Counted from the stretch's first letter, positions 2,326-58,923 are shown. The stretch is 64,000 nucleotides of DNA from Candidatus Lloydbacteria bacterium RIFCSPHIGHO2_02_FULL_50_18 (GCA_001821395.1 MHLM01000004.1:1-64000); one strand, 5' to 3'. The notes: generated from the sequence alone by a model not told the origin. A program made the numbers and translations.

Positions 2326-4413
2326 ATGATAACCAATGGTGAATTTTTTAACGCTACCCTTGAAGCCCTTGATTTTGAGGGTGACGACCAGCAAAGGCGT
2401 GACACCGAAGCCAATGCCGGCAACATAGTCCAAGCGGTCATGACCGCTTACGGTGCGCCGGCGGGAGGGGTTATTGACCCCACCTCAACACCCACACCTC
2501 CTCCTGTCGGACTAGTCTACGGACGTATTCAAAGCGGTAAGACTCGAGCGATGATCGCCAGTACTGCTCTTGCATTCGATAACGGTTTCCGCATTTCGGT
2601 CGTTATGACCAGCAATATAAATGATCTGGTGACACAGACGCATGGAGACTTTACGAGCGGCCTTCATGGTGTGATGACCTTCACAAAAGATGATGATCTT
2701 GGGCGTGAGGTTGAGAATGTGAAGATGCAGATGGAAAGAGGCAATGGACGCCTACTCATTGTCTGTTCTAAAGGGGCGGGAAGCCTTCAGAACGTCTCTA
2801 CTTTTCTAACCAACATTGGAGCCGGTGAGTACCCCGCAATCATCTTCGACGATGAAGGAGACCAGGCGTCTCTCGACACGAACACAGCAAGGCGCGCTCG
2901 AGGCGAAGTCGCCATAGACCCCAGTACGATAAATCGCATCATTCAGAATAATCTCAAGGGTGCTTTGATTCGTCACGTCTACGTTAGTGTTACGGGGACG
3001 CCTCAAGCTGTACTTCTCCAGAGTGTTGGGTCAACACACCGCGCTTCGTTTATCACAATGCTACCTCCCGGCAGGTCATACATTGGAGGCGATCACTTTT
3101 TCAGCACAGGTGAACCGGAGGACAATCCTGATCGTCTAATCGAAATTGTTGAGCACGATGAGAAGGATCAGCTCCTAAATATGGACGCTATCGTGCCTGA
3201 TGGATTAAGGCACTCGATACTCTTTTTCCTTGTTTCAGCCTCTGCCGCGATTCTAACAATAGGCCCCAAATCGAAAGGATATGCGCATCTATCTCACCCG
3301 AGTCTTCGGAACAATGAACAGGAGTGTGCTGAAACGCGTATAAACGTGTTCCTGGCTGAAGTCGCTTCAGCATTATTTGAGGAAGGAGAAACTGAGATTG
3401 AGAGAGAGCTACGAGCGGCCTATGAGAATCTCCGTACGACACTAGGAGATGAGACTCCTGACTTCGCCGATGTGGTAGAGACCATCAAGAAGCAACTCGC
3501 AACGAGAAAGATTCTTGTGATAAACGCAAAGGTAAAGAGACAAGGTATTGCATACGGTCCCGGCCTAAACTTCTTAATCGGCGGTAACACTTTAGGGCGA
3601 GGTATTGCGGTAAAGAACTTGCTCGTAACCTACTACGTTCGGGATGCCCGAGTGTCACAAATAGATACAATGCACCAGCATGCCCGAATGTATGGGTATC
3701 GGTTGGCGACGTTAAAGCACACTAGGCTCTTTATCCCTAGACATCTTTACTACCGCTTCAGGGATATACACGAAAGTGATACGGATCTACGGGCATTCAT
3801 CGAGGCTCACAAGGATCAGCTACCAGGCTCGTTTCCAGTTGAATATACTGAGGAGCTTCGCACGACTCGGGGGAACGTTCTTGATGTGAACAACATGGAT
3901 GCCTTGCGTCCAAGGATGCATGTGTTCCCAAATTACGTAATAGTCCCTCAAGCTGTGAGGGGCTATGAACAAACTATCGAAAGAATGCGAGCGCGGTTTG
4001 TGCTTCCTACTGCAACAGAGCATGAGCTTGCCGCCGCGTATCCTGATGGACTGGAAATAAGTAAGGATGAAGCGATTGAATTAGCAACAGGCATCAAGAC
4101 TCATTCAAAGAATACATGGAGGGATAAGACCATCGCTGTCGTTATTGGAAAAGTCGCGGCACATTACAATGATCGAGTACTCCTTCGTTTTCGAACAGCG
4201 AACAGAACGGTGGGTGTCGATGGATTTATCTCGACGGGAGCAGTCTCCGGTGATGAACTCCGCACAGCACGCGATGGAGCAATCCCAACCCTATGGATCA
4301 TGTCGGTAACGACAAGAGGTGGAGACGGGGTTCCCGCAGGAGAACGTTTTATGTACCCAACATTCATCATCCCCGAGAACTTCCCTCGACTGTTCATGTT
4401 CAATCGTGGATAA
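2326..4413 (+). CDS. Z1-domain-like SF2/P-loop NTPase, putative restriction/defence component partnered with the adjacent cytosine methyltransferase
   Basis: Walker A GRIQSGKT, DEAD-like DDEGD, TGTP and helicase motif-VI-like HQHARMYGYR; immediately upstream of a Dcm-type MTase. Confidence 0.75.
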   Translation: MITNGEFFNATLEALDFEGDDQQRRDTEANAGNIVQAVMTAYGAPAGGVIDPTSTPTPPPVGLVYGRIQSGKTRAMIASTALAFDNGFRISVVMTSNINDLVTQTHGDFTSGLHGVMTFTKDDDLGREVENVKMQMERGNGRLLIVCSKGAGSLQNVSTFLTNIGAGEYPAIIFDDEGDQASLDTNTARRARGEVAIDPSTINRIIQNNLKGALIRHVYVSVTGTPQAVLLQSVGSTHRASFITMLPPGRSYIGGDHFFSTGEPEDNPDRLIEIVEHDEKDQLLNMDAIVPDGLRHSILFFLVSASAAILTIGPKSKGYAHLSHPSLRNNEQECAETRINVFLAEVASALFEEGETEIERELRAAYENLRTTLGDETPDFADVVETIKKQLATRKILVINAKVKRQGIAYGPGLNFLIGGNTLGRGIAVKNLLVTYYVRDARVSQIDTMHQHARMYGYRLATLKHTRLFIPRHLYYRFRDIHESDTDLRAFIEAHKDQLPGSFPVEYTEELRTTRGNVLDVNNMDALRPRMHVFPNYVIVPQAVRGYEQTIERMRARFVLPTATEHELAAAYPDGLEISKDEAIELATGIKTHSKNTWRDKTIAVVIGKVAAHYNDRVLLRFRTANRTVGVDGFISTGAVSGDELRTARDGAIPTLWIMSVTTRGGDGVPAGERFMYPTFIIPENFPRLFMFNRG

Positions 4414-4464
4414 GTTGCGTCATTGCCCCTCGAGTTTTTCCCCGATTAGTTCTATAATTCATAC

Positions 4465-5568
4465 ATGTCATCAAGACGTGCTAATAAATCAAAAGATATA
4501 AAAGTTGTTGACCTGTTCTGCGGTGTTGGAGGGCTGACACACGGTCTCATTCTTGAAGGATTGGATGTGGTTGCGGGTGTAGACAATGACGTCTCCTGCC
4601 AGTTCGCATTCGAACAAAATAACTCATCAAAGTTTATATACAAAGACGTTTCAAAGTTCTCGTCGAAGGAGCTGGAGGAACTATACGGGGATGCACCTGT
4701 GAAAGTATTAGTTGGTTGCGCTCCGTGCCAACCATTTTCGGCAATAAGTAAATCAAAGGCCATCGGAAAGGATGATGACCGTAATCGATGGGCACCGTTG
4801 TACCGGTTCATAAAACTTATACAGGACACAAAACCGGATGTGGTCTCAATGGAGAACGTTCCCGATCTTTGTAATACCAAAAAGTATCCGGTCTTCGCTG
4901 ACTTCCTGAAGTCTTTATCGGTGGCGGGATATAACGTCTCATATAAGGTTGTGGACGTTTCAAGGTATGGCGTGCCGCAGAAGAGGAGAAGGATGGTTTT
5001 GCTCGCATCTCGTCTGGGAGAAATTAGTCTCATTCCAGAGACGCACGATAAAACTAACGTCGTTACCGTACGAGAAACAATTGGACACTTGGAAAATTTA
5101 AAGGATGGTGAGGTTCATAAGCTCGATGTCCTACACCGTTCAAGCAGGTTGAGTGAGATGAATAAGAGGCGAATTATTGCCACACCAAAGAATGGCGGTA
5201 GCGCAAAGAGTTGGAGCGATGACCTGATGCCTGATTGTTTCAAGCGGGATAGTGGTAAGTCATACATGACGACTGTCTATGGAAGAATGAGGTGGGACGA
5301 TGCTTCTCCTACGATAACAACACACTGCACTACGTTAGGTGCTGGTCGGTATGGTCACCCAAAACAAAACCGAGCAATCTCTCTTCGTGAAGCCGCCTTG
5401 CTTCAAAGCTTTCCTGAGTATTATCAATTTGATCCGCCTGAAAAAATTTCGATGGTTAAGACAGCGAGACATATCGGAAATGCTGTCCCAGTTCAATTGG
5501 GCCGAGTAATCGGTGAAAGTATTAAAAGGCATATCGAAACTCATAGGGCTACAGCCCGGAGGAAGTAG
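4465..5568 (+). CDS. DNA (cytosine-5)-methyltransferase
   Basis: Motif I DLFCGVGG, motif IV GCAPCQPFS, motif VI ENVPDL, motif VIII QKRRRMVLL, motif X region ISLREAALLQSFPEYY. Confidence 0.9.
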   Translation: MSSRRANKSKDIKVVDLFCGVGGLTHGLILEGLDVVAGVDNDVSCQFAFEQNNSSKFIYKDVSKFSSKELEELYGDAPVKVLVGCAPCQPFSAISKSKAIGKDDDRNRWAPLYRFIKLIQDTKPDVVSMENVPDLCNTKKYPVFADFLKSLSVAGYNVSYKVVDVSRYGVPQKRRRMVLLASRLGEISLIPETHDKTNVVTVRETIGHLENLKDGEVHKLDVLHRSSRLSEMNKRRIIATPKNGGSAKSWSDDLMPDCFKRDSGKSYMTTVYGRMRWDDASPTITTHCTTLGAGRYGHPKQNRAISLREAALLQSFPEYYQFDPPEKISMVKTARHIGNAVPVQLGRVIGESIKRHIETHRATARRK

Positions 5569-5818
5569 ATTCAGCTCGCCTAAAAAGGTAGAATGAAGGT
5601 GTCACATCCTGTGACCACATAGCCTAAACCAGGAGCAATCCTGGCATGGCCACATAAATCCTACGCGACAGAAGCGGCCTCATAGGTCGGCTCTACTCGC
5701 GTAGGTCAGGTGTCCCGAAAGGGCCCTGGGTAATGCCCGAAAGGGTGTTATCGCCGATTCTGTGGGGCCACTTCTGTACCTACAGCTTCGGGATTATCAG
5801 AAAACCTACGCGAACAAT

Positions 5819-6325
5819 ATGAGAAATTCTCACCGGGGATTCATCCCTCTGGTGGCAATCATCCTACTCGGCCTAGTGGCTGTGGGTGGAGGGGTGGTTG
5901 CGACCATATCACTTAAGGGGCACGAAAGGGCTCCTGCTTCACCCGAGCAAATCGATTCTTTGGCCCCTGTTGCGGCACGTGTCGAGAGTTCTGCCACCAC
6001 TACGACAAGTACGAGCCCGGCGGGCACTAAGCCACCCGTTGAACAGATTGAGGTAGTGACCGAAAAGCAGGTCGTTTTAGATACAAAATCCAAGGAGATC
6101 TGCGACCAAATCGCCTCGGTTCAAATCGATACCTCCAAGCAGTCCCTTGTTGAGGACATGAGAGTGCTCTGTGAGCTGATCGATAAAGGGCGCTATCAGG
6201 AGGGAGAGGAGCTTGATACGGCAACCACACGACTACATGAGAAGTGGGAGTTGTGGCTCAAGGTCCAAACGGCCCAAGAATCAGCAGAAAGCAGGGCCCA
6301 GGACATAGAAAACGGTACCAGATAG
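5819..6325 (+). CDS. membrane-anchored hypothetical protein (single N-terminal TM, Ser/Thr-rich linker, acidic C-domain)
   Basis: Track ORF 5762..6325 starts with GTG; ATG at 5819 gives MRNSHRG + TM helix; island cargo. Confidence 0.45.
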   Translation: MRNSHRGFIPLVAIILLGLVAVGGGVVATISLKGHERAPASPEQIDSLAPVAARVESSATTTTSTSPAGTKPPVEQIEVVTEKQVVLDTKSKEICDQIASVQIDTSKQSLVEDMRVLCELIDKGRYQEGEELDTATTRLHEKWELWLKVQTAQESAESRAQDIENGTR

Positions 6326-6335
6326 CCTCACACAT

Positions 6336-6445
6336 CGAATTACAGCGAATTAAAATAGGGGTCTTGGACCGAATTAAACCGAATTAAATACGGGGGTCTG
6401 GAGCGGATCAAAGCGAATTAAATCGAGGGGTATGGAATGCGCCGG
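6336..6445. repeat. iteron-like array: five CGAATTA(AA) copies, three followed by a G-run and TCTGGA-like tail
   Basis: cgaatta at 6336, 6346, 6370, 6380, 6414, read directly; just upstream of the recombinase operon. Confidence 0.5.
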
Positions 6446-6704
6446 AAACTGAAAAAATACGAGAGATCGTTATCCACAAGGGTGGCACAGGTGTGCAACC
6501 TTGTGCGATTTGTGCAGAAGCATAAACTAAAGAGGTACCTATCTGGTTAAACCAGATTAGTCTCGGAGTAAGACCCGGGCTAAACACTGAGGCTGGGAAC
6601 CTCGCTAGGCAGGGATCATCGAGAGGCTGCCATTTCATCTCACGAACGTGGGGTGCGATGGCAGTCTCTTTGCTGTTAAGCATCACACGCCGTGCACACA
6701 CGGC

Positions 6705-6884
6705 ATGCTATCTCTCGAAGAATGTAAGAAACACATACGAAGTCTGGACTTACCTGATGATGAGGTCGAAAAAATCAGGGACCTTTTGTATGCCTTTGTG
6801 GAAAGAACGCTGGACTATGGCCTTGAAAAAGGCATGTTTGTTGTTGCACATAAGCCATGTCATCCAACCGATCAAGAAAACTAG
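6705..6884 (+). CDS. possible small acidic protein upstream of / overlapping the recombinase start (excisionase/regulator-like by position only)
   Basis: Inner ATG of track ORF 6648..6884; charged helical-looking sequence; overlaps the recombinase start by 28 nt. Confidence 0.25.
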   Translation: MLSLEECKKHIRSLDLPDDEVEKIRDLLYAFVERTLDYGLEKGMFVVAHKPCHPTDQEN

Positions 6885-8458
6885 ATTCAAGCTCAGCACT
6901 AATCTATTGCCGAGTCTCCTCGGATCGCCAGGCGAAAGAGGGTCATGGACTCGATAGTCAGGAGCATCGATGTCGCGAGTACGCGAAGTCGAAGAGTTAT
7001 GAAGTGGAAGACGTATTTACCGATACCTTCAGTGGCGGCGGTGATTTCTTGAAACGGCAAGGCATGGTCGCGTTACTACATTACATAGATAAGCACCCGC
7101 ATAGAAACTATGTTGTGGTCTTCGACGACTTAAGCCGATTTGCTCGAGATGTCGCGGCTCATATAAGGCTTCGACAAGAGTTTGATAAAAGAGACACAAA
7201 GATTGAGTGCCCAAACTTCACGTTTGAAGATACGCCAGAGGGTGAATTGGTGGAGAACATTATGGCGGCACAGAATCAGTACCACAGGAAAAGCAACAGG
7301 AGACAGGTAATTCAGAAGATGAAAGCTCGACTTGAGAAGGGGTATTGGCCTCACTATCCGCCACCGGGCTACAAGCAAGCGAACGATCCAGTACACGGTA
7401 AGCTCCTAAAACCAATAGAGCCTCGGGCAAGCATAATCAGAGAAGCCTTTGAAGGGTTTGCTTCTGATCGCTTCATGACTCAGACCGACGTCATGTACTT
7501 CCTACGAGGGACTGAATATAACAATGGCAGACCTGTTTACGTGGAAGGAGTCAGGCGTCTGCTCCGCCGGGTGGTATATGCCGGTTATGTCGAGCGTGAG
7601 GAATGGGATGTGTCGAGACGTAAGGGACAGCATGAAGCACTGATTAGTTTGGAAGTGTTCGAAAAAGTCCAAGCAAAGCTCGATGGCAAGTGTAGGGTGC
7701 GCACGCGGATAAGTGACAAACTCGACTTCGCACTGAGAGGCTCAATCCTGTGTCACGAGTGTAGGCGTCCACTAACGGGAAGCTGGAGCAGAGGGAGGAG
7801 CAAGATGTACCGATTCTACCGATGTAACACGCCGTCATGCGCGCGCTATAACAAGAGCCTCAATGGTGATTTCGTGGATGAGAGATTCAAAGTGTTACTT
7901 GAGTCTGCTGTACCGCGAGCAGAACTTCTTGAACTCACACGGGCGATTGCTCTAGACGTATGGTCAAAGAGAATTAAGACCATAGATGAGCGTCGGACAG
8001 AGCTCGAGAGGAAGCTCACTGAAACACGACGGCAGGTAGAGGTATTCTCAGACCGGATCGTCAGAGCAATAGACGAATCGATGGTTCGAGTGTACGAGGA
8101 GCAAATTGTCCGAATAAGGGAAGAGGGACTTCTCATCCAAGAACAACTGCAGAAACTCGGAGTATCAGCCTCGAGCTTTGAAACCGCACTTGAAGTGGTG
8201 ATGGGATTCCTAAAAGACCCAGTGTTCATATACGAAAATGGAGACATGAACGCAAAAAGACTAGTCCTAGGACTAGTCTTCGCGGAGAAATTGGCGTTCC
8301 ATCACAAGGATGGCTTTGAAACCGCTCAAAAGCCAATGTTAATCGGGCTATTTGAACAGATTCACACCAAGGATTCCCAAGATGTGGAGATGGCGGGGGC
8401 GAACCCGCGTCCAGCAGAGAAGAGTACAAAGATCTACGTGCGTAGGTTGTCTCATTGA
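6857..8458 (+). CDS. large serine recombinase (resolvase/invertase-type catalytic domain + recombinase and zinc-ribbon C-terminal region)
   Basis: N-terminal ALIYCRVSSDRQ catalytic serine motif; 533 aa; Cys cluster CHECRRPLTG...CNTPSC; coiled-coil C-terminus. Confidence 0.9.
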   Translation: MSSNRSRKLDSSSALIYCRVSSDRQAKEGHGLDSQEHRCREYAKSKSYEVEDVFTDTFSGGGDFLKRQGMVALLHYIDKHPHRNYVVVFDDLSRFARDVAAHIRLRQEFDKRDTKIECPNFTFEDTPEGELVENIMAAQNQYHRKSNRRQVIQKMKARLEKGYWPHYPPPGYKQANDPVHGKLLKPIEPRASIIREAFEGFASDRFMTQTDVMYFLRGTEYNNGRPVYVEGVRRLLRRVVYAGYVEREEWDVSRRKGQHEALISLEVFEKVQAKLDGKCRVRTRISDKLDFALRGSILCHECRRPLTGSWSRGRSKMYRFYRCNTPSCARYNKSLNGDFVDERFKVLLESAVPRAELLELTRAIALDVWSKRIKTIDERRTELERKLTETRRQVEVFSDRIVRAIDESMVRVYEEQIVRIREEGLLIQEQLQKLGVSASSFETALEVVMGFLKDPVFIYENGDMNAKRLVLGLVFAEKLAFHHKDGFETAQKPMLIGLFEQIHTKDSQDVEMAGANPRPAEKSTKIYVRRLSH

Positions 8459-8775
8459 TTTCATGTCGTAAGGGCTAGGCAAACAAAACCTTACGAGCAC
8501 TACTCCCTTAGTTTTCGTTATCGTATTCGGGTACTACGATTCTTATCCTGAAAATATGACACGAAGGATGGGCCTATCAGGCGTACTCCCGCTTCGCGCC
8601 GTCTACTTAAGCGTAGGCGAAAGCGAAATTGTTGGCCTTAAAGTAAGGCGTCGCAATTCCACCGGTGCTTTTCTTGGCACTTTCAAGTTGTTCGCGTGAT
8701 TTACGAGACTACGAACATGCTCGGCACGCACGATATACTACTTCTTCCACTGTCGAAACATTTCATCCCCCTAAA

Positions 8776-12518: not shown

Positions 12519-12676
12519 TACCCACCCGTAGCAGAGTTGGTAAGCCAGCTCACTACGTGAGGCCTGGCTGGCTTTTTCGAAAATGAGCCGGCCACCGCCA
12601 GCGCATTCACACAACTCGTCTTCTCCGTTACACTACGAAGGCGATCTCGAATAGAGCGGTCGTCTTTGGAAAGGCA
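12519..12676 (+). pseudogene. degenerate tRNA 5' fragment (copy of the 5' half of the downstream tRNA-Ile) with a ~111-nt structured element inserted in its D-loop
   Basis: cccacccgtagcAgagttgg ... tagagcggtcgtcttt matches the tRNA at 12860 except D-stem mismatches; no intact 3' half. Confidence 0.5.
12541..12651 (+). ncRNA. copy 1 of a conserved ~112-nt hairpin-rich element (terminator-like hairpin + TTTTT, CACC-loop hairpin, ACACAACTCGTCTTCTCCG and CGATCTCGAA blocks)
   Basis: Same element at 58634..58746 with compensatory changes in two stems (AGCCAG/CTGGCT vs AGCCAA/TTGGCT; GCCGGC..GCCAGC vs GTCGCC..GGCGAC). Confidence 0.55.
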
Positions 12677-12857
12677 GCGAGAGATAAATGAAAGTTCTAC
12701 TTTCATTTGAATCGAGTGAACCTTTCCGTTCTTTGAGAATTTTGTGCACGCATAGCTCAGTTGGTAGAGCGGTCGTCTTTAGAAGAGCAACGAGAGATAA
12801 ATGAAAGTTCTACTTTCTTTTGAATCGAGTGAACTCTTCGCATTCTTTGAAAACTTA
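12677..12857 (+). repeat. two tandem ~110-nt units, each [~77-nt spacer with gaaagt-tct-actttc hairpin] + [tRNA 5' half]
   Basis: Spacers 12677-12745 and 12781-12857 are ~85% identical; second unit contains tRNA 5' half 12746-12780. Confidence 0.6.
12746..12780 (+). other. tRNA 5' half (acceptor GCACGCA, D-arm, anticodon stem GTCGT, loop start CTTT); its matching 3' half is at 12952..12986
   Basis: Acceptor 5' GCACGCA pairs with TGCGTGC at 12979-12985; stems GTCGT/ACGAC perfect. Confidence 0.55.
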
Positions 12858-12859
12858 GT

Positions 12860-12932
12860 CCACCCGTAGCTCAGTTGGTAGAGCGGTCGTCTTATACACG
12901 ATTGGTCCCTGGTTCGAGTCCAGGCGGGTGGA
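12860..12932 (+). tRNA. tRNA-Ile (anticodon UAU; loop CTTATAC), no encoded CCA
   Basis: Hand-folded cloverleaf: acceptor CCACCCG/CGGGTGG, D-stem GCTC/GAGC, anticodon stem GTCGT/ACGAT, T-arm CCTGG-TTCGAGT-CCAGG. Confidence 0.7.
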
Positions 12933-12951
12933 CTCAGTTTTGAAAGAATTT

Positions 12952-12986
12952 ACGACTGGTCCTAGGTTCGAGTCCTAGTGCGTGCA
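12952..12986 (+). other. tRNA 3' half (anticodon-stem 3' strand ACGAC, T-arm CTAGG-TTCGAGT-CCTAG, acceptor TGCGTGC) matching the 5' half at 12746..12780
   Basis: Read directly; separated from its 5' half by ~170 nt that contain the intact tRNA-Ile. Confidence 0.55.
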
Positions 12987-13001
12987 CAAAGATTTGAAAG
13001 G

Positions 13002-13030
13002 CCGTACGATTGGTCCCCGGTTCGACTAAG
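13002..13030 (+). pseudogene. truncated tRNA 3' fragment (ACGAT TGGTC CCCGG TTCGACT then unrelated sequence)
   Basis: Anticodon-stem 3' strand and T-arm 5' strand only; T-stem 3' strand and acceptor are missing. Confidence 0.4.
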
Positions 13031-13160
13031 AGTCAGTAGATTATTTTTTGAAAGCCGGAAGTGCTTTTTTTGAGAGGCAACGCCGCTTAATGCTTGCATG
13101 TTCAGAGTTTTTGATTAGCATGAAGAGTAGCAGCGTACATCAACAAAAAGAGGGGGTGTT

Positions 13161-33504: not shown

Positions 33505-33529
33505 ACCAGCATGACAGTGCTGGTTTTTT
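33505..33529 (+). terminator. rho-independent terminator
   Basis: accagca-tgacag-tgctggt then TTTTTT. Confidence 0.65.
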
Positions 33530-33673
33530 ATGTGCGGAGGGGGCGAGATGTTCGACGCCTACTGCGTCAGTACCCGTTTCCCATTTTCTCAACATAAGAA
33601 TGTCTCGAAAATAGGGGAGAACGGCTTCGAATCTCGCACGAAAGTCGAGCAGTCGACTTTCTCTCCTCCGCAT

Positions 33674-33707: not shown

Positions 33708-33796
33708 TGCGGAGGGGGCGAGATTCGAACTCGCGGACCGTTTAACGGGTCGACAGTTTAGTAAACTGTTGATTTAAACCACTCATCCACCCCTCC
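33708..33796 (-). tRNA. type II (long variable arm) tRNA, Ser-like; anticodon loop TTACTAA gives nominal anticodon ACU (unusual); CA after the discriminator
   Basis: Hand-folded: acceptor GGAGGGG/CCCCTCC, 3-bp D-stem, anticodon stem ACAGT/ACTGT, long arm, T-arm GCGAG-TTCGAAT-CTCGC. Confidence 0.5.
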
Positions 33797-33829: not shown

Positions 33830-34360
33830 TGAAAGAGAGAGGGCGGGAATTGGTCACAAGTCATACCATCTCCAGTTAACTCTTTCTGCTCACAGAAGTT
33901 TCAAAGGTCAGTCCTTGGCCCTGCCTGCGCAGGCAGGTTTGAAAGGTCTCTCCTTGGAAACTGATTCGGAAGACCTTAACGAGAGATGGTATCACTAAGC
34001 GTATGCGGAGCAAGGCTCCTTATCCGTTAAGTGCACCACGGAGAGGGCGGGAATTTCTCGGCTTACAGCCGCAATACACCTTTGCGATTTATTCAGCATA
34101 AGAATGCTTCACAAATATCACCACGAGGAGTACTTCATTTTTCTAAGACGGAGTACCGTTAAGAAAAATTGGTCGCGCAAAGCTTTTCGAATCTCTTTGC
34201 GAGAGGGCGGATGCGGTCACGAGTTACTAAGCTTTTTATTTCGCTTCGCTCATAAAAATCTAAGTACTCTCGACCCCGACTCGGCTACGACCTTCGACGA
34301 GCTCAGGTCGGCTTCGCGCCTCCGTCTTTCGAATCCCGCCCTCTCGCGCAATGGCATATT
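33830..34360. repeat. array of partial copies of the tRNA-Ser 3' end, plus an 18-bp palindrome cctgcctgc|gcaggcagg at 33920-33937
   Basis: Copies at 33831-33860, 34038-34066 and 34199-34230 are direct (same orientation as the gene); 34340-34356 is inverted. Confidence 0.55.
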
Positions 34361-34381: not shown

Positions 34382-34471
34382 TTTAAGCCATTGGCGGAGA
34401 GGGCGGGATTCGAACCCGCGAGGGGTTTTATCCCCTGCCACGTTAGCAGTGTGGTGCCTTCAGCCGCTCGG
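34382..34471 (-). tRNA. tRNA-Ser (anticodon GCU), CCA encoded
   Basis: Hand-folded type II cloverleaf: acceptor GGAGAGG/CCTCTCC, loop CTGCTAA, long arm, T-arm GCGGG-TTCGAAT-CCCGC. Confidence 0.8.
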
Positions 34472-34581
34472 CCACCTCTCCAAAATATTATTGCTCATGT
34501 AACTTAGCATATTGAGCGCTACTTATCAAAGTACCCCAAGAGAAAGCAGCATTTGGGAAGTTCTGGCTATTTCCCGCGAAC

Positions 34582-57235: not shown

Positions 57236-57262
57236 GAAGCATCTGCATGCTTCCGACGAGAC
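57236..57262. repeat. palindrome ggaagcat-ctgc-atgcttcc followed by an inverted copy of the tRNA-Asp T-arm/3' end (gacgagactcgaactcgc)
   Basis: 18-nt exact reverse complement of tRNA-Asp 57161-57178. Confidence 0.55.
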
Positions 57263-57329
57263 TCGAACTCGCCATCACCATGATGAGTACTTCCAATTTC
57301 ATACTCTCTGTAGTCGTTGAAATTTAGGT

Positions 57330-57385
57330 CGCTCCATAAAGCCTGCGATGACGATCTCGAATAAGCTTCGCTTCTCGTCCGTCCC
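57330..57385. repeat. third, fragmentary copy of the tRNA-associated element family (CTGCGATGACGATCTCGAATAAGC + TTCGCTTCTCGTCCG)
   Basis: Matches the 3' block of the elements at 12541-12651 and 58634-58746. Confidence 0.45.
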
Positions 57386-58300: not shown

Positions 58301-58326
58301 AATATTTGAAGTGCCGTCGTAGCTGT
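58301..58326 (+). repeat. partial upstream duplicate of the tRNA-Thr(GGU) leader + first 13 nt
   Basis: atttgaagtgccgtcgtagct repeated at 58338-58362 where it continues into the intact tRNA. Confidence 0.55.
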
Positions 58327-58348
58327 TTTGGTAGATAACATTTGAAGT

Positions 58349-58534: not shown

Positions 58535-58610
58535 GCCGCCTTAGCTCAGTTGGTAGAGCATCTCACTCGTAACGAGAAGGTCCGCAGTTCGATCCTGCGA
58601 GGCGGCTCCA
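58535..58610 (+). tRNA. tRNA-Thr (anticodon CGU), CCA encoded
   Basis: Acceptor GCCGCCT/AGGCGGC, loop CTCGTAA, T-arm CGCAG-TTCGATC-CTGCG; A31·C39 mismatch. Confidence 0.75.
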
Positions 58611-58620
58611 AGTAAATAGT

Positions 58621-58803
58621 TTCGCTCAGTTGGTAAGCCAAGTCCGCAAAGCCAGACACTGGGTTGGCTTTTTCGTAGCAGTGTCGCCCACCGGCGACGC
58701 ACCACACAACTCGTCTTCTCCGCTACGCTGCGAAAACGATCTCGAATAGAGCATCTCACTCGTAACGAGAAGGTCCGCAGTTCGATCCTGCGAGGCGGCT
58801 CTA
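58621..58803 (+). pseudogene. partial copy of tRNA-Thr(CGU) lacking the 5' acceptor strand and ending CTAG instead of CCA, with the ~113-nt structured element inserted in the D-loop
   Basis: gctcagttgg | element | tagagcatctcactcgtaacgagaaggtccgcagttcgatcctgcgaggcggctctag. Confidence 0.55.
58634..58746 (+). ncRNA. copy 2 of the conserved ~112-nt hairpin-rich element
   Basis: Aligns with 12541..12651 over full length with stem-preserving substitutions. Confidence 0.55.
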
Positions 58804-58923
58804 GAAAAAGAACGTAGTATTTTTTTGTCCGCCTCAAGAAAATAACTGCTTGTTTTCTGGCAGGATCGAATAGCGAAGCTAAAAAGCCGCGCATATGCGC
58901 GGCTTTGTGTACTCACTCATTTC

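Follow-up and report, generated by a model that had tools for sequence, protein, structure and literature searches.

The interrupted tRNA loci

The stretch of DNA analysed here, referred to as the window, comprises 64,000 nucleotides of Candidatus Lloydbacteria bacterium RIFCSPHIGHO2_02_FULL_50_18 (GCA_001821395.1, MHLM01000004.1:1-64000) and is chromosomal DNA of a groundwater bacterium of the candidate phyla radiation (CPR; Patescibacteria), with a tmRNA gene and the housekeeping genes for FtsH, RecG, dUTPase and GatA. Two dead tRNA genes in it, one for tRNA-Ile(UAU) and one for tRNA-Thr(CGU), are interrupted in the D-loop by related copies of a short structured element, which is the subject of this work. 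Contigs of GCA_001818945.1 (Candidatus Lloydbacteria RIFCSPHIGHO2_01_FULL) are identical to the window across both loci, and two proteins encoded in the window have 100% identical counterparts under that organism name.

Copy 1, of the Ile type, occupies positions 12541-12653 of the + strand and consists of a TA (12541-12542), a 109-nt core (12543-12651) and a second TA (12652-12653), with GTTGG ending at 12540 on its left and GAGC starting at 12654 on its right. Copy 2, of the Thr type, lies at 58634-58748 on the same strand and has the same layout (TA at 58634-58635, a 111-nt core at 58636-58746, TA at 58747-58748), between a GTTGG that ends at 58633 and a GAGC that starts at 58749. The interrupted sequence reads GTTGG-TA-[AGCC...CTCGAA]-TA-GAGC where an ordinary D-loop reads GTTGG-TA-GAGC. 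The copies score 120.8 and 127.4 bits, respectively, with the covariance model. As a first-pass annotation of this DNA had claimed, they can be aligned over their full length, end to end, and they share the 20-mer CACACAACTCGTCTTCTCCG and the 16-mer CGATCTCGAATAGAGC, each exact in both copies, versus 0.00 and 0.14 matches expected from shuffled sequence. Absent from that annotation were the TA on both sides, which is found in all five full copies known, and the truncated or nested state of the host remnants. The first and last bases of the element are identical throughout, its core measures 109-117 nt across full copies, and in every resolved case the uninterrupted paralogue or orthologue contains a single TA.

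In the Ile locus, the host is the outermost dead 5' half. Its 5' part (CCACCCGTAGCAGAGTTGG, 12522-12540, + strand) has the D-stem GCTC mutated to GCAG, and the rest (GAGCGGTCGTCTT, 12654-12666, + strand) stops at a second cut in the anticodon loop, at the start of a nested tRNA cassette, its 3' half being decayed. In the Thr locus, the remaining 5' part (CGCTCAGTTGG, 58623-58633, + strand) lacks the acceptor strand, while the 3' part (58749-58808, + strand) includes, together with the preceding TA, a 55-nt match to the intact gene at 58535-58610. This 3' part is followed by the native trailer, which in a relative (L042) stands after the single tRNA-Thr(CGU) gene; the interrupted copy thus marks the old gene position, with the intact copy upstream of it. 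An intact tRNA gene of the same kind is found beside, or nested inside, each host copy of the element. The element survives only in tRNA copies that had already become redundant. The simplest order of events is that the partial copy lost its function first and the element landed in it second, since insertions into working tRNA genes would be lost.

A third copy had been placed by the first-pass annotation between tRNA-Asp and tRNA-Met. It is real but limited to the final ~40 nt of the element (about 57322-57361, followed by TA; 57322-57363 in all, + strand), as a 5'-truncated or decayed right end that reads ..GGTCGCTCC..CTGCGATGACGATCTCGAA. Adjoining it, just downstream of the intact tRNA-Asp, are an inverted T-arm and 3' end of tRNA-Asp (57240-57275, minus strand, ggcgagttcgagtctcgtcgg). 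Rfam has no family for the element at either locus, whether at the gathering threshold or at E values up to 10. Searches of phages and plasmids with blastn returned no match to the element, and its core 16-mer gave only chance matches in viral contigs.

Copies and empty sites in other genomes

Genomes and metagenomes (GTDB, JGI) were scanned with an exact 22-base pattern from the right end, which diverged relatives would escape. Among 185,579 species genomes there was one true match, in the Lloydbacteria metagenome-assembled genome (MAG) L007 (JAYSTI010000017.1), in which DNA syntenic with the window (~78% nucleotide identity) has the element at the corresponding tRNA-Ile D-loop site (5706-5818, - strand); there too the anticodon loop of the host is cut and its 3' half decayed. 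The metagenome scan added two copies. One, in contig L013, interrupts the anticodon loop of a 5'-truncated tRNA-Thr(UGU), just after the intact gene, as ...CACTTTTG-TA-[element]-TA-AAGTGAAGG; this host has no 5' acceptor strand and a shortened D-loop. The other, in contig L016, interrupts a hairpin loop as GGTCCTG-TA-[element]-TA-AGGACC. The search for further copies that had been suggested for this element thus yielded three more full ones in public collections, which makes five at four independent sites (the Ile copies of the window and L007 being orthologous) in four genomes or metagenome contigs. A covariance model of the five copies detected no further one when applied to the window and to ~280 kb of related DNA, and no solitary left or right end occurs in 470 kb of DNA scanned. 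The known range of the element is so far confined to Lloydbacteria-like CPR bacteria.

An orthologous empty site is provided by L053, a close relative (a neighbouring protein is 86% identical to that of the window) in which the same promoter and leader (81% identity) are followed by the uninterrupted CCACCCGTAGCTCAGTTGGTAGAGCGGTCGTCTTATACACG. L036 has a plain tRNA-Ile without the element, and the other arrangements found in L033, L035 and L037 likewise lack it. The Thr locus is free of it both in L041, a strain of the same species, and in the relative L042. The sequence common to the targets is (G/T)G-TA-R only, but in each of them the TA closes a hairpin loop right before the 3' strand of the stem, as in the D-loop AGTTGGTA|GAGC, the anticodon loop TTGTA|AAGTG and the L016 hairpin GTA|AGGACC. 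In all copies the element is in sense orientation relative to the tRNA sequence. Identical ends at three kinds of target site, together with the orthologous empty site in L053, identify the element as an insertion and as mobile.

The flank of the L016 copy is homologous to window positions 33568-33633 (minus strand), where the corresponding hairpin is uninterrupted (GACGC-AGTAG-GCGTC). These positions fall within a second family of inserts, represented in the window at 33527-33660 and 34039-34117 (minus strand), which are ~72 nt long, contain two hairpins, occupy the T-loop of tRNA-Ser-like remnants, are 71% identical to each other and adjoin two intact tRNA-Ser genes. Since the element of L016 lies in the TGTAA loop of the homologous hairpin, one insert there contains another. 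Fragments of tRNA-Ser crowd the window all the way from 33.5 to 34.4 kb; ARAGORN calls in this part a tRNA-Ser with anticodon ACT (33709-33796, - strand), which is unusual in bacteria, and a normal tRNA-Ser(GCT) lies at 34392-34481.

Structure and covariation

The consensus structure of the five copies, obtained with RNAalifold, contains the features listed in the first-pass annotation: a GC hairpin followed by TTTTT, a hairpin with a CACC loop, and the conserved blocks. Hairpin P1 (helix 1; AAGCCAG...CTGGCTT at 12542-12574 of copy 1, + strand) begins with the A of the left TA, varies at its tip and leads into a T-run, in a terminator-like arrangement. Its consensus is AAGCCAR...YTGGCTT with an invariant U.G pair, 100% of its cells are paired, and two of its pairs are changed on both sides. 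The GCCAR/YTGGC stem precedes TTTTT in all copies and was missed by a consensus terminator scan, its loop being longer than 8 nt. P2 (helix 3; GCCGGC CACC GCCAGC at 12587-12602 of copy 1, + strand, with one C.A mismatch in this copy) has six base pairs and a CACC or CGCC loop; three of the six pairs are changed on both sides, the variants being GTCGCC/GGCGAC, GTCTGC/GCAGAC and GTCCGC/GCGGAC. Further downstream, block CACACAACTCGTCTTCTCCG (12608-12627, + strand), the last 18 nt of which are invariant in all five copies, is followed by sequence with which it can form P4 (helix 4; TCGTCTTC at 12616-12623 with GAAGGCGA at 12637-12644, + strand; consensus TCGTCTTC with GAAGRCGA). The right end CGAA (12648-12651, + strand) pairs with TTCG at 12576-12579 in an invariant closing helix of 4 bp (helix 2). 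P4 and the closing helix are uninformative on covariation because they are invariant.

The two ends of the element are complementary to one internal segment. In copy 1, the 12-mer CTGGCTTTTTCG (12568-12579, + strand) is complementary to the joined ends CGAA-TA-AGCCAG, read in reverse, at 11 of its 12 positions (pairs 3-9/36-42 and 44-47/116-119). The consensus form YTGGCTTTTTCG (YTGGCTT-T-TTCG) likewise agrees with the reverse complement of CGAA-TA-AGCCAR at all but one of 12 positions in each of the five copies, with the sole mismatch facing the T of the TA. Because this internal 12-mer pairs with both ends, the two junctions come to lie side by side on one continuous helix in the folded single strand. 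An alternative long-range helix, UUCGUAG/CUACGAA, was dropped in favour of the RNAalifold fold, its middle position pairing in two of the five copies.

Standard pairs fill 96.5% of the pair cells in the consensus fold versus 24-48% with slid partners. Changes on both sides are seen in five pairs, of which three belong to P2, and the covariation score was reached by none of 500 shuffles. As the five sequences form two clades, these changes represent ~4-5 independent compensatory events, and the covariation is thus real but thin. The compensatory changes first reported for this element were partly correct: AGCCAG/CTGGCT versus AGCCAA/TTGGCT stands, whereas GCCGGC..GCCAGC of copy 1 contains the C.A mismatch, and it is across the five copies that this helix covaries. 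The covariation had moreover been read as the signature of a selected RNA structure, but an RNA fold and a folded DNA strand cannot be separated by it.

No reading frame is conserved across the copies on either strand, and the copies differ by indels of 1, 4 and 7 nt. Terminal inverted repeats are lacking, as the left AGCCAAGTC.. and the reverse complement of the right TTCGAGATCG.. agree at ~6 of 13 positions, and dyad symmetry around the TA, which would be expected for att sites of serine integrases, is weak (~4 of 13). The motifs CCACC(C)GCC and ACTCG are suggestive of an origin of the element from an inverted tRNA 3' end.

Conservation and a possible host role at the tRNA-Ile locus

The Ile copies of the window and L007 are identical at 101 of 111 positions (91%), whereas the flanking non-coding DNA matches at 61 of 91 and 48 of 81 positions (59-67%) and the neighbouring genes show ~78% nucleotide identity. 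By our own arithmetic, the 10 differences compare with ~40 expected, which is far outside chance. The Ile copy is therefore either under selection or a recent gain in both lineages at the same site. It sits between the native tRNA-Ile promoter upstream (TTGAAT-17-TACTCT, shared with L053) and the only intact tRNA-Ile(UAU) downstream. P1 with its T-run probably halts transcription arriving from the upstream promoter, and copies of the Ile locus, but no others, contain a promoter-like TTCACA-17-TACACT (12606-12634, + strand; TTCCCA-17-TACACT in L007), identified by its match to the consensus. The element at this locus appears to have gained a host role, either by allowing read-through or by providing an internal promoter, and such a role would explain the unusual conservation of the Ile copy. 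Terminating or restarting transcription is a plausible function of the element at this site.

The locus itself (window 12522-13060; L007 5440-5900, - strand; L033 12686-12832; L053 2050-2101) is a nested array of tRNA-Ile(UAU) halves. In the window, 5' halves start at 12522, 12746 and 12860, the outer two each followed by a structured spacer of ~80 nt with a covarying stem, and 3' halves start at 12898, 12952 and 13006, each followed by ~18 nt; the innermost pair alone makes an intact gene (12860-12933). The middle halves correspond to the tRNA that is intact in L007 and L033, here divided within its anticodon loop and lacking ATAC, which indicates that a cassette of 172 nt (spacer, tRNA and trailer) entered this loop of a resident tRNA-Ile. 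There is an alternation of acceptor types (CCACCCG / GCACGCA / CCACCCG), and the leader and trailer of the inner tRNA-Ile are inverted repeats. The arrangement resembles a tRNA gene that supplants others of its type, a situation perhaps more unusual than the 112-nt element. In this species and its relatives, many metagenome contigs (the ends of L032 and L033; L047-L052) break inside or just before the tRNA-Ile locus, as expected from the effect of repeated tRNA halves on short-read assembly, and such loci are therefore probably under-represented in MAGs.

Nature and movement of the element

We consider it probable that the 109-117 bp core, devoid of an open reading frame (ORF) and of terminal inverted repeats, is a non-autonomous mobile DNA element, which would be previously undescribed and the first of its kind in the phylum so far as Rfam and literature searches show. 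The absence of inverted repeats, the same dinucleotide at both junctions, the short target motif and the fixed orientation all point to conservative recombination at a 2-bp TA core via a circle. In this process, the element would pass through an excised circle, or a folded single strand, under the action of a recombinase supplied in trans and not encoded by the element itself, along an IS607- and IS110-like route. The three-way junction of the P1 hairpin, the 4-bp closing helix and P2/P4 would set the two junctions side by side at its base, and the fold may be that of the recombination substrate or of a transcript. The junction of the circle would read ..ACGATCTCGAA-TA-AGCCAAGTC.. (in short, ..CGATCTCGAA-TA-AGCCA..), and the excised allele of the Thr remnant would read agtttCGCTCAGTTGGTAGAGCATCTC.

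Several points weigh against a non-autonomous DNA element. No recombinase associated with the element's ends was found in ~300 kb of Lloydbacteria DNA, among ~40 ORFs of the window or in the right-end scans of GTDB and JGI, and neither a circular junction nor a precise excision product has been observed so far. The family is very small, and a parasitic relic would not usually be as well conserved as the orthologous copy is. Recombinases that act on a dinucleotide core in double-stranded DNA need no hairpins, which leaves the stems and the pairing of the ends unexplained by the mechanism alone. Moreover, the target specificity of IS110-type enzymes normally extends over at least 10 nt, while the targets here share ~4 nt and a hairpin context. 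In favour of this reading, the genome encodes at least one serine recombinase, a large one at 6857-8458 of the window, in an island next to the tmRNA gene; no link of this island to the element and no tmRNA 3'-end repeat were found in the window, and a 7-nt AAGCCAA match near the island end was treated as chance. A bridge or seek guide RNA encoded by the element itself seems unlikely as well, the matches to the targets being only 4-5 nt long and the invariant block being unable to specify three targets.

An intron-like nature had been among the candidate identities put forward at the outset, and the mobility that it implied is borne out by the copies and the empty site described above. Splicing is another matter. 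In such a scenario, the element would be transcribed in tRNA precursors, its ends would meet, it would be excised by itself or by host enzymes with rejoining of the exons, and it would spread by reverse insertion into exposed tRNA loops; removal at the RNA level would give reads of GCAGAGTTGG-TA-GAGCGG with the remnant-specific GCAG. The constant sense orientation, the placement in the D-loop and anticodon loop, both of which a folded tRNA exposes, the intron-like design in which one internal strand joins both ends, the invariant U.G pair of P1, which favours folding of the + strand, and the abundance of tRNA introns in Patescibacteria (PMC13011429) are all in keeping with it. We nonetheless regard an RNA-level intron as very unlikely. 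The hosts are dead: in four of the five, exact removal yields no tRNA, the Thr and L013 hosts having no 5' acceptor strand, the Ile host a broken D-stem and a decayed 3' half, and the L007 host a split anticodon loop, and an intact gene of the same kind adjoins or is nested in each copy. There is no match to group I or group II introns or to self-cleaving ribozymes in Rfam at E values up to 10, no choice of boundaries places the G required of group I introns at the end of the insert, and inspection showed no 4-bp helix between the 5' end of the element and the variable 3' exons, as a bulge-helix-bulge (BHB) motif would need. In bacteria, reverse transcriptase usually comes from group II introns, and none of these are reported in Patescibacteria (PMC13011429). 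A hammerhead was also considered on account of NUH triplets (GUA, AUA) at both junctions, but its CUGAUGA/GAAA core is not conserved, and covariance models of hammerhead, twister, pistol, hatchet and hepatitis delta virus (HDV)-like ribozymes gave no match.

The remaining alternatives keep the movement at the DNA level or dispense with it. Insertion of the folded top strand, on the lagging-strand template, into extruded hairpin loops by a single-strand mechanism of the IS200/IS605, HUH or integron-attC type would account for the covarying hairpins, the pairing of the ends with an internal guide-like segment, the hairpin-loop targets and the lack of inverted repeats, and both window copies are on the G-rich (+) strand, which has lagging-strand template polarity. 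This strand argument is based on two or three copies only, however, and the geometry does not fit that of IS608, as P1 begins at the very first base, leaves no room for a left guide and differs from the hairpin on the right; no GTT core as in attC is present, and the DNA scanned showed neither a Y1 transposase nor an IntI. Such a single-strand element is unlikely, and a miniature integrative circle of ~190-200 bp is somewhat more doubtful still. The latter, composed of the element and a partial tRNA, would restore the resident tRNA and displace its old 3' part, with the element as the attP-side arm, in agreement with the order seen in the Thr locus of the window and in L013 (intact tRNA, 12-26 nt of spacer, 5'-truncated copy with the element), with the native trailer after the interrupted copy and not after the intact one, and with the use of tRNA-Thr(CGU) as an integration hotspot, where L041 has a different insert of 155 nt and a duplicated 3' end. 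The Ile locus and L016, in contrast, show simple insertions of 111-119 nt with nothing else added, the same precise ends recur at three different positions within tRNA sequence, and the TA, which is all that element and targets have in common, is too short for the overlap region of a tyrosine integrase. The earlier suggestion of an arm of an att site is likewise not supported, the 109-117 nt unit occurring as a simple insertion that has only 2 bp in common with its targets. Absence of any current mobility, with the element serving as a host regulatory module of tRNA operons (terminator plus promoter, or small RNA) copied a few times by recombination, would fit the 91% identity of the orthologous copy amid non-coding DNA of 59-67%, the terminator-like P1 and promoter-like hexamers of the Ile copies, and their location downstream of the native promoter and ahead of the one tRNA-Ile(UAU) that is intact. 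Segmental copying would not, however, yield exact TA-flanked insertions in three unrelated loop contexts, the hexamers are not conserved in Thr-type copies, the Thr locus has no downstream + strand gene to drive, and P1 was not flagged by the simple terminator scan; this explanation is extremely unlikely. A novel small RNA, another of the identities first proposed, is conceivable, although the terminator-like hairpin stands at the 5' end of the unit and not at its 3' end. In a broader and more speculative proposal, which we hold to be improbable, the element, the nested tRNA-in-tRNA cassettes and the T-loop inserts would together form a hitherto unrecognised CPR mobilome that targets tRNA loops, in which the element would be a bacterial counterpart of the transposable tRNA introns of archaea, removed or moved as RNA, or a self-folding substrate that a new structure-specific recombinase inserts into hairpin loops.

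Comparison with known systems

If the element is a non-autonomous DNA element, as we favour, its closest working analogues would be the ssr9 module of ISPpu9 and non-autonomous IS607-like units. ISPpu9, an IS110-family element of Pseudomonas putida with a DEDD enzyme, inserts at an AG core into repetitive extragenic palindromic (REP) targets, and ssr9, which has the same end boxes, moves alone as a mini-circle with the transposase in trans (PMC12288879). Similar in both systems are a module of the size of an RNA gene without transposase, short conserved end boxes without terminal inverted repeats, the same dinucleotide at both junctions (in ISPpu9, one from the target and one from the element) and insertion in one orientation into palindromic targets. 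The present element differs in its core, TA and not AG, and in its targets, which are tRNA-derived hairpin loops sharing ~4 nt, and its invariant single-stranded block cannot guide it to three different targets. The matches between element and targets that could serve a bridge or seek RNA are only 5 nt long (CAACT versus AGTTG), and the variable P2 does not track the target. No bridge or seek RNA was found, nor was a DEDD transposase among the window ORFs scanned or the called genes of the other loci analysed. In an IS110-type mini element, 29 and 16 bp of the ends are sufficient (PMC11187229). The IS607 family, with a serine TnpA, a GG core within TGGG, no inverted repeats and a circular excised form with precise joints (PMC10690162), likewise shares with the element a core dinucleotide and the lack of inverted repeats and of a true target duplication, with an upstream preference for TGGG in IS607 and (G/T)GTA in the element. 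IS607 carries tnpA and usually tnpB, however, while the element has no ORF, the only serine recombinase seen in the window, a large one (6857-8458), has no demonstrated link to the element's ends, and the structural covariation is without counterpart in the ends of IS607.

Miniature inverted-repeat transposable elements (MITEs) that duplicate TA, of the IS630/Tc1 type, such as Correia of Neisseria and RUP of pneumococcus, are ~100-150 bp long, lack an ORF, can carry terminators or promoters and have clear terminal inverted repeats. The element resembles them in being short and without ORF and in the TA on both sides of all five copies. It differs in its structured target choice and fixed orientation and, because it lacks inverted repeats (~6/13), is not a strict MITE. 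The dissimilarity of P1, P2 and P4 and the start of P1 at base 1 of the element also set it apart from the palindrome-associated transposable elements (PATEs) of IS200/IS605, as it has no similar subterminal hairpins with guide tetranucleotides. Pairing of the junction with an internal segment is analogous to integron attC, although the core is G|TA, there is no cassette array and no IntI was seen in the ORFs scanned.

Regarding introns, the tRNA group I introns of Patescibacteria are full-length ribozymes of subgroup IA, located at anticodon-loop positions such as 35/36 of functional tRNAs, and self-splicing has been shown (PMC13011429). The element has in common with them the phylum and the insertion in a loop of a tRNA gene, but it has no group I match, is ~110 nt long, resides in dead hosts and occupies D-loops at two of its four sites. 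The transposable BHB introns of archaeal tRNAs (Thermoproteales) are related short inserts at D-, anticodon- and T-loops of functional hosts, from which the EndA endonuclease splices them. The element is likewise a short insert with relatives at several positions in different tRNA genes, but its hosts are bacterial pseudogenes and no BHB motif is evident.

CPR genomes are tiny and streamlined, yet pieces of dead tRNA genes and small structured inserts in their loops are numerous in this Lloydbacteria lineage. The element is a clean case, with exact ends, an orthologous empty site and structural covariation. It illustrates how insertions can be accommodated at a tRNA locus that is essential and present once: the hits fell on redundant copies alone, and the Ile insert now stands between a promoter and a working gene. 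Should the recombinase be identified, the way in which it prefers a TA bordering a hairpin loop would be mechanistically interesting and might be useful as a tool. For annotation, the lesson is that an insert in a tRNA pseudo-copy of a CPR genome need not be an intron.

Other tRNA-linked observations

In L041 (1590-1830), tRNA-Thr(CGU) has a variant 3' end (GATTCTGCGAGGTGGCTCC), followed by an insert of 155 nt and by a second copy of this 3' end that begins in the T-loop, beyond which the DNA is different. Integrative elements leave such a pattern, and it marks tRNA-Thr(CGU) as an integration hotspot. A likely integrated island is present in the window at 2326-8770, with genes for a Z1-domain protein (2326-4413) and a C-5 cytosine methylase (4465-5568), a LOOT RNA (5621-5752) and the large serine recombinase (6857-8458). 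A D-arm-like motif, GCTGT(T/C)TTG(G/A)TAGATAAC, occurs upstream of several tRNA genes (Thr-GGU, Thr-CGU and Ile) in several genomes (58309-58340 in the window; L035 14078-14105; L037 12231-12262; L042 6682-6710 and 6824-6842). Often the leader and the first 12 nt of the tRNA are duplicated just ahead of it, and TGGTAGATA resembles an extended -10 box; partial 5' tRNA duplicates may thus serve as tRNA promoters in Lloydbacteria.

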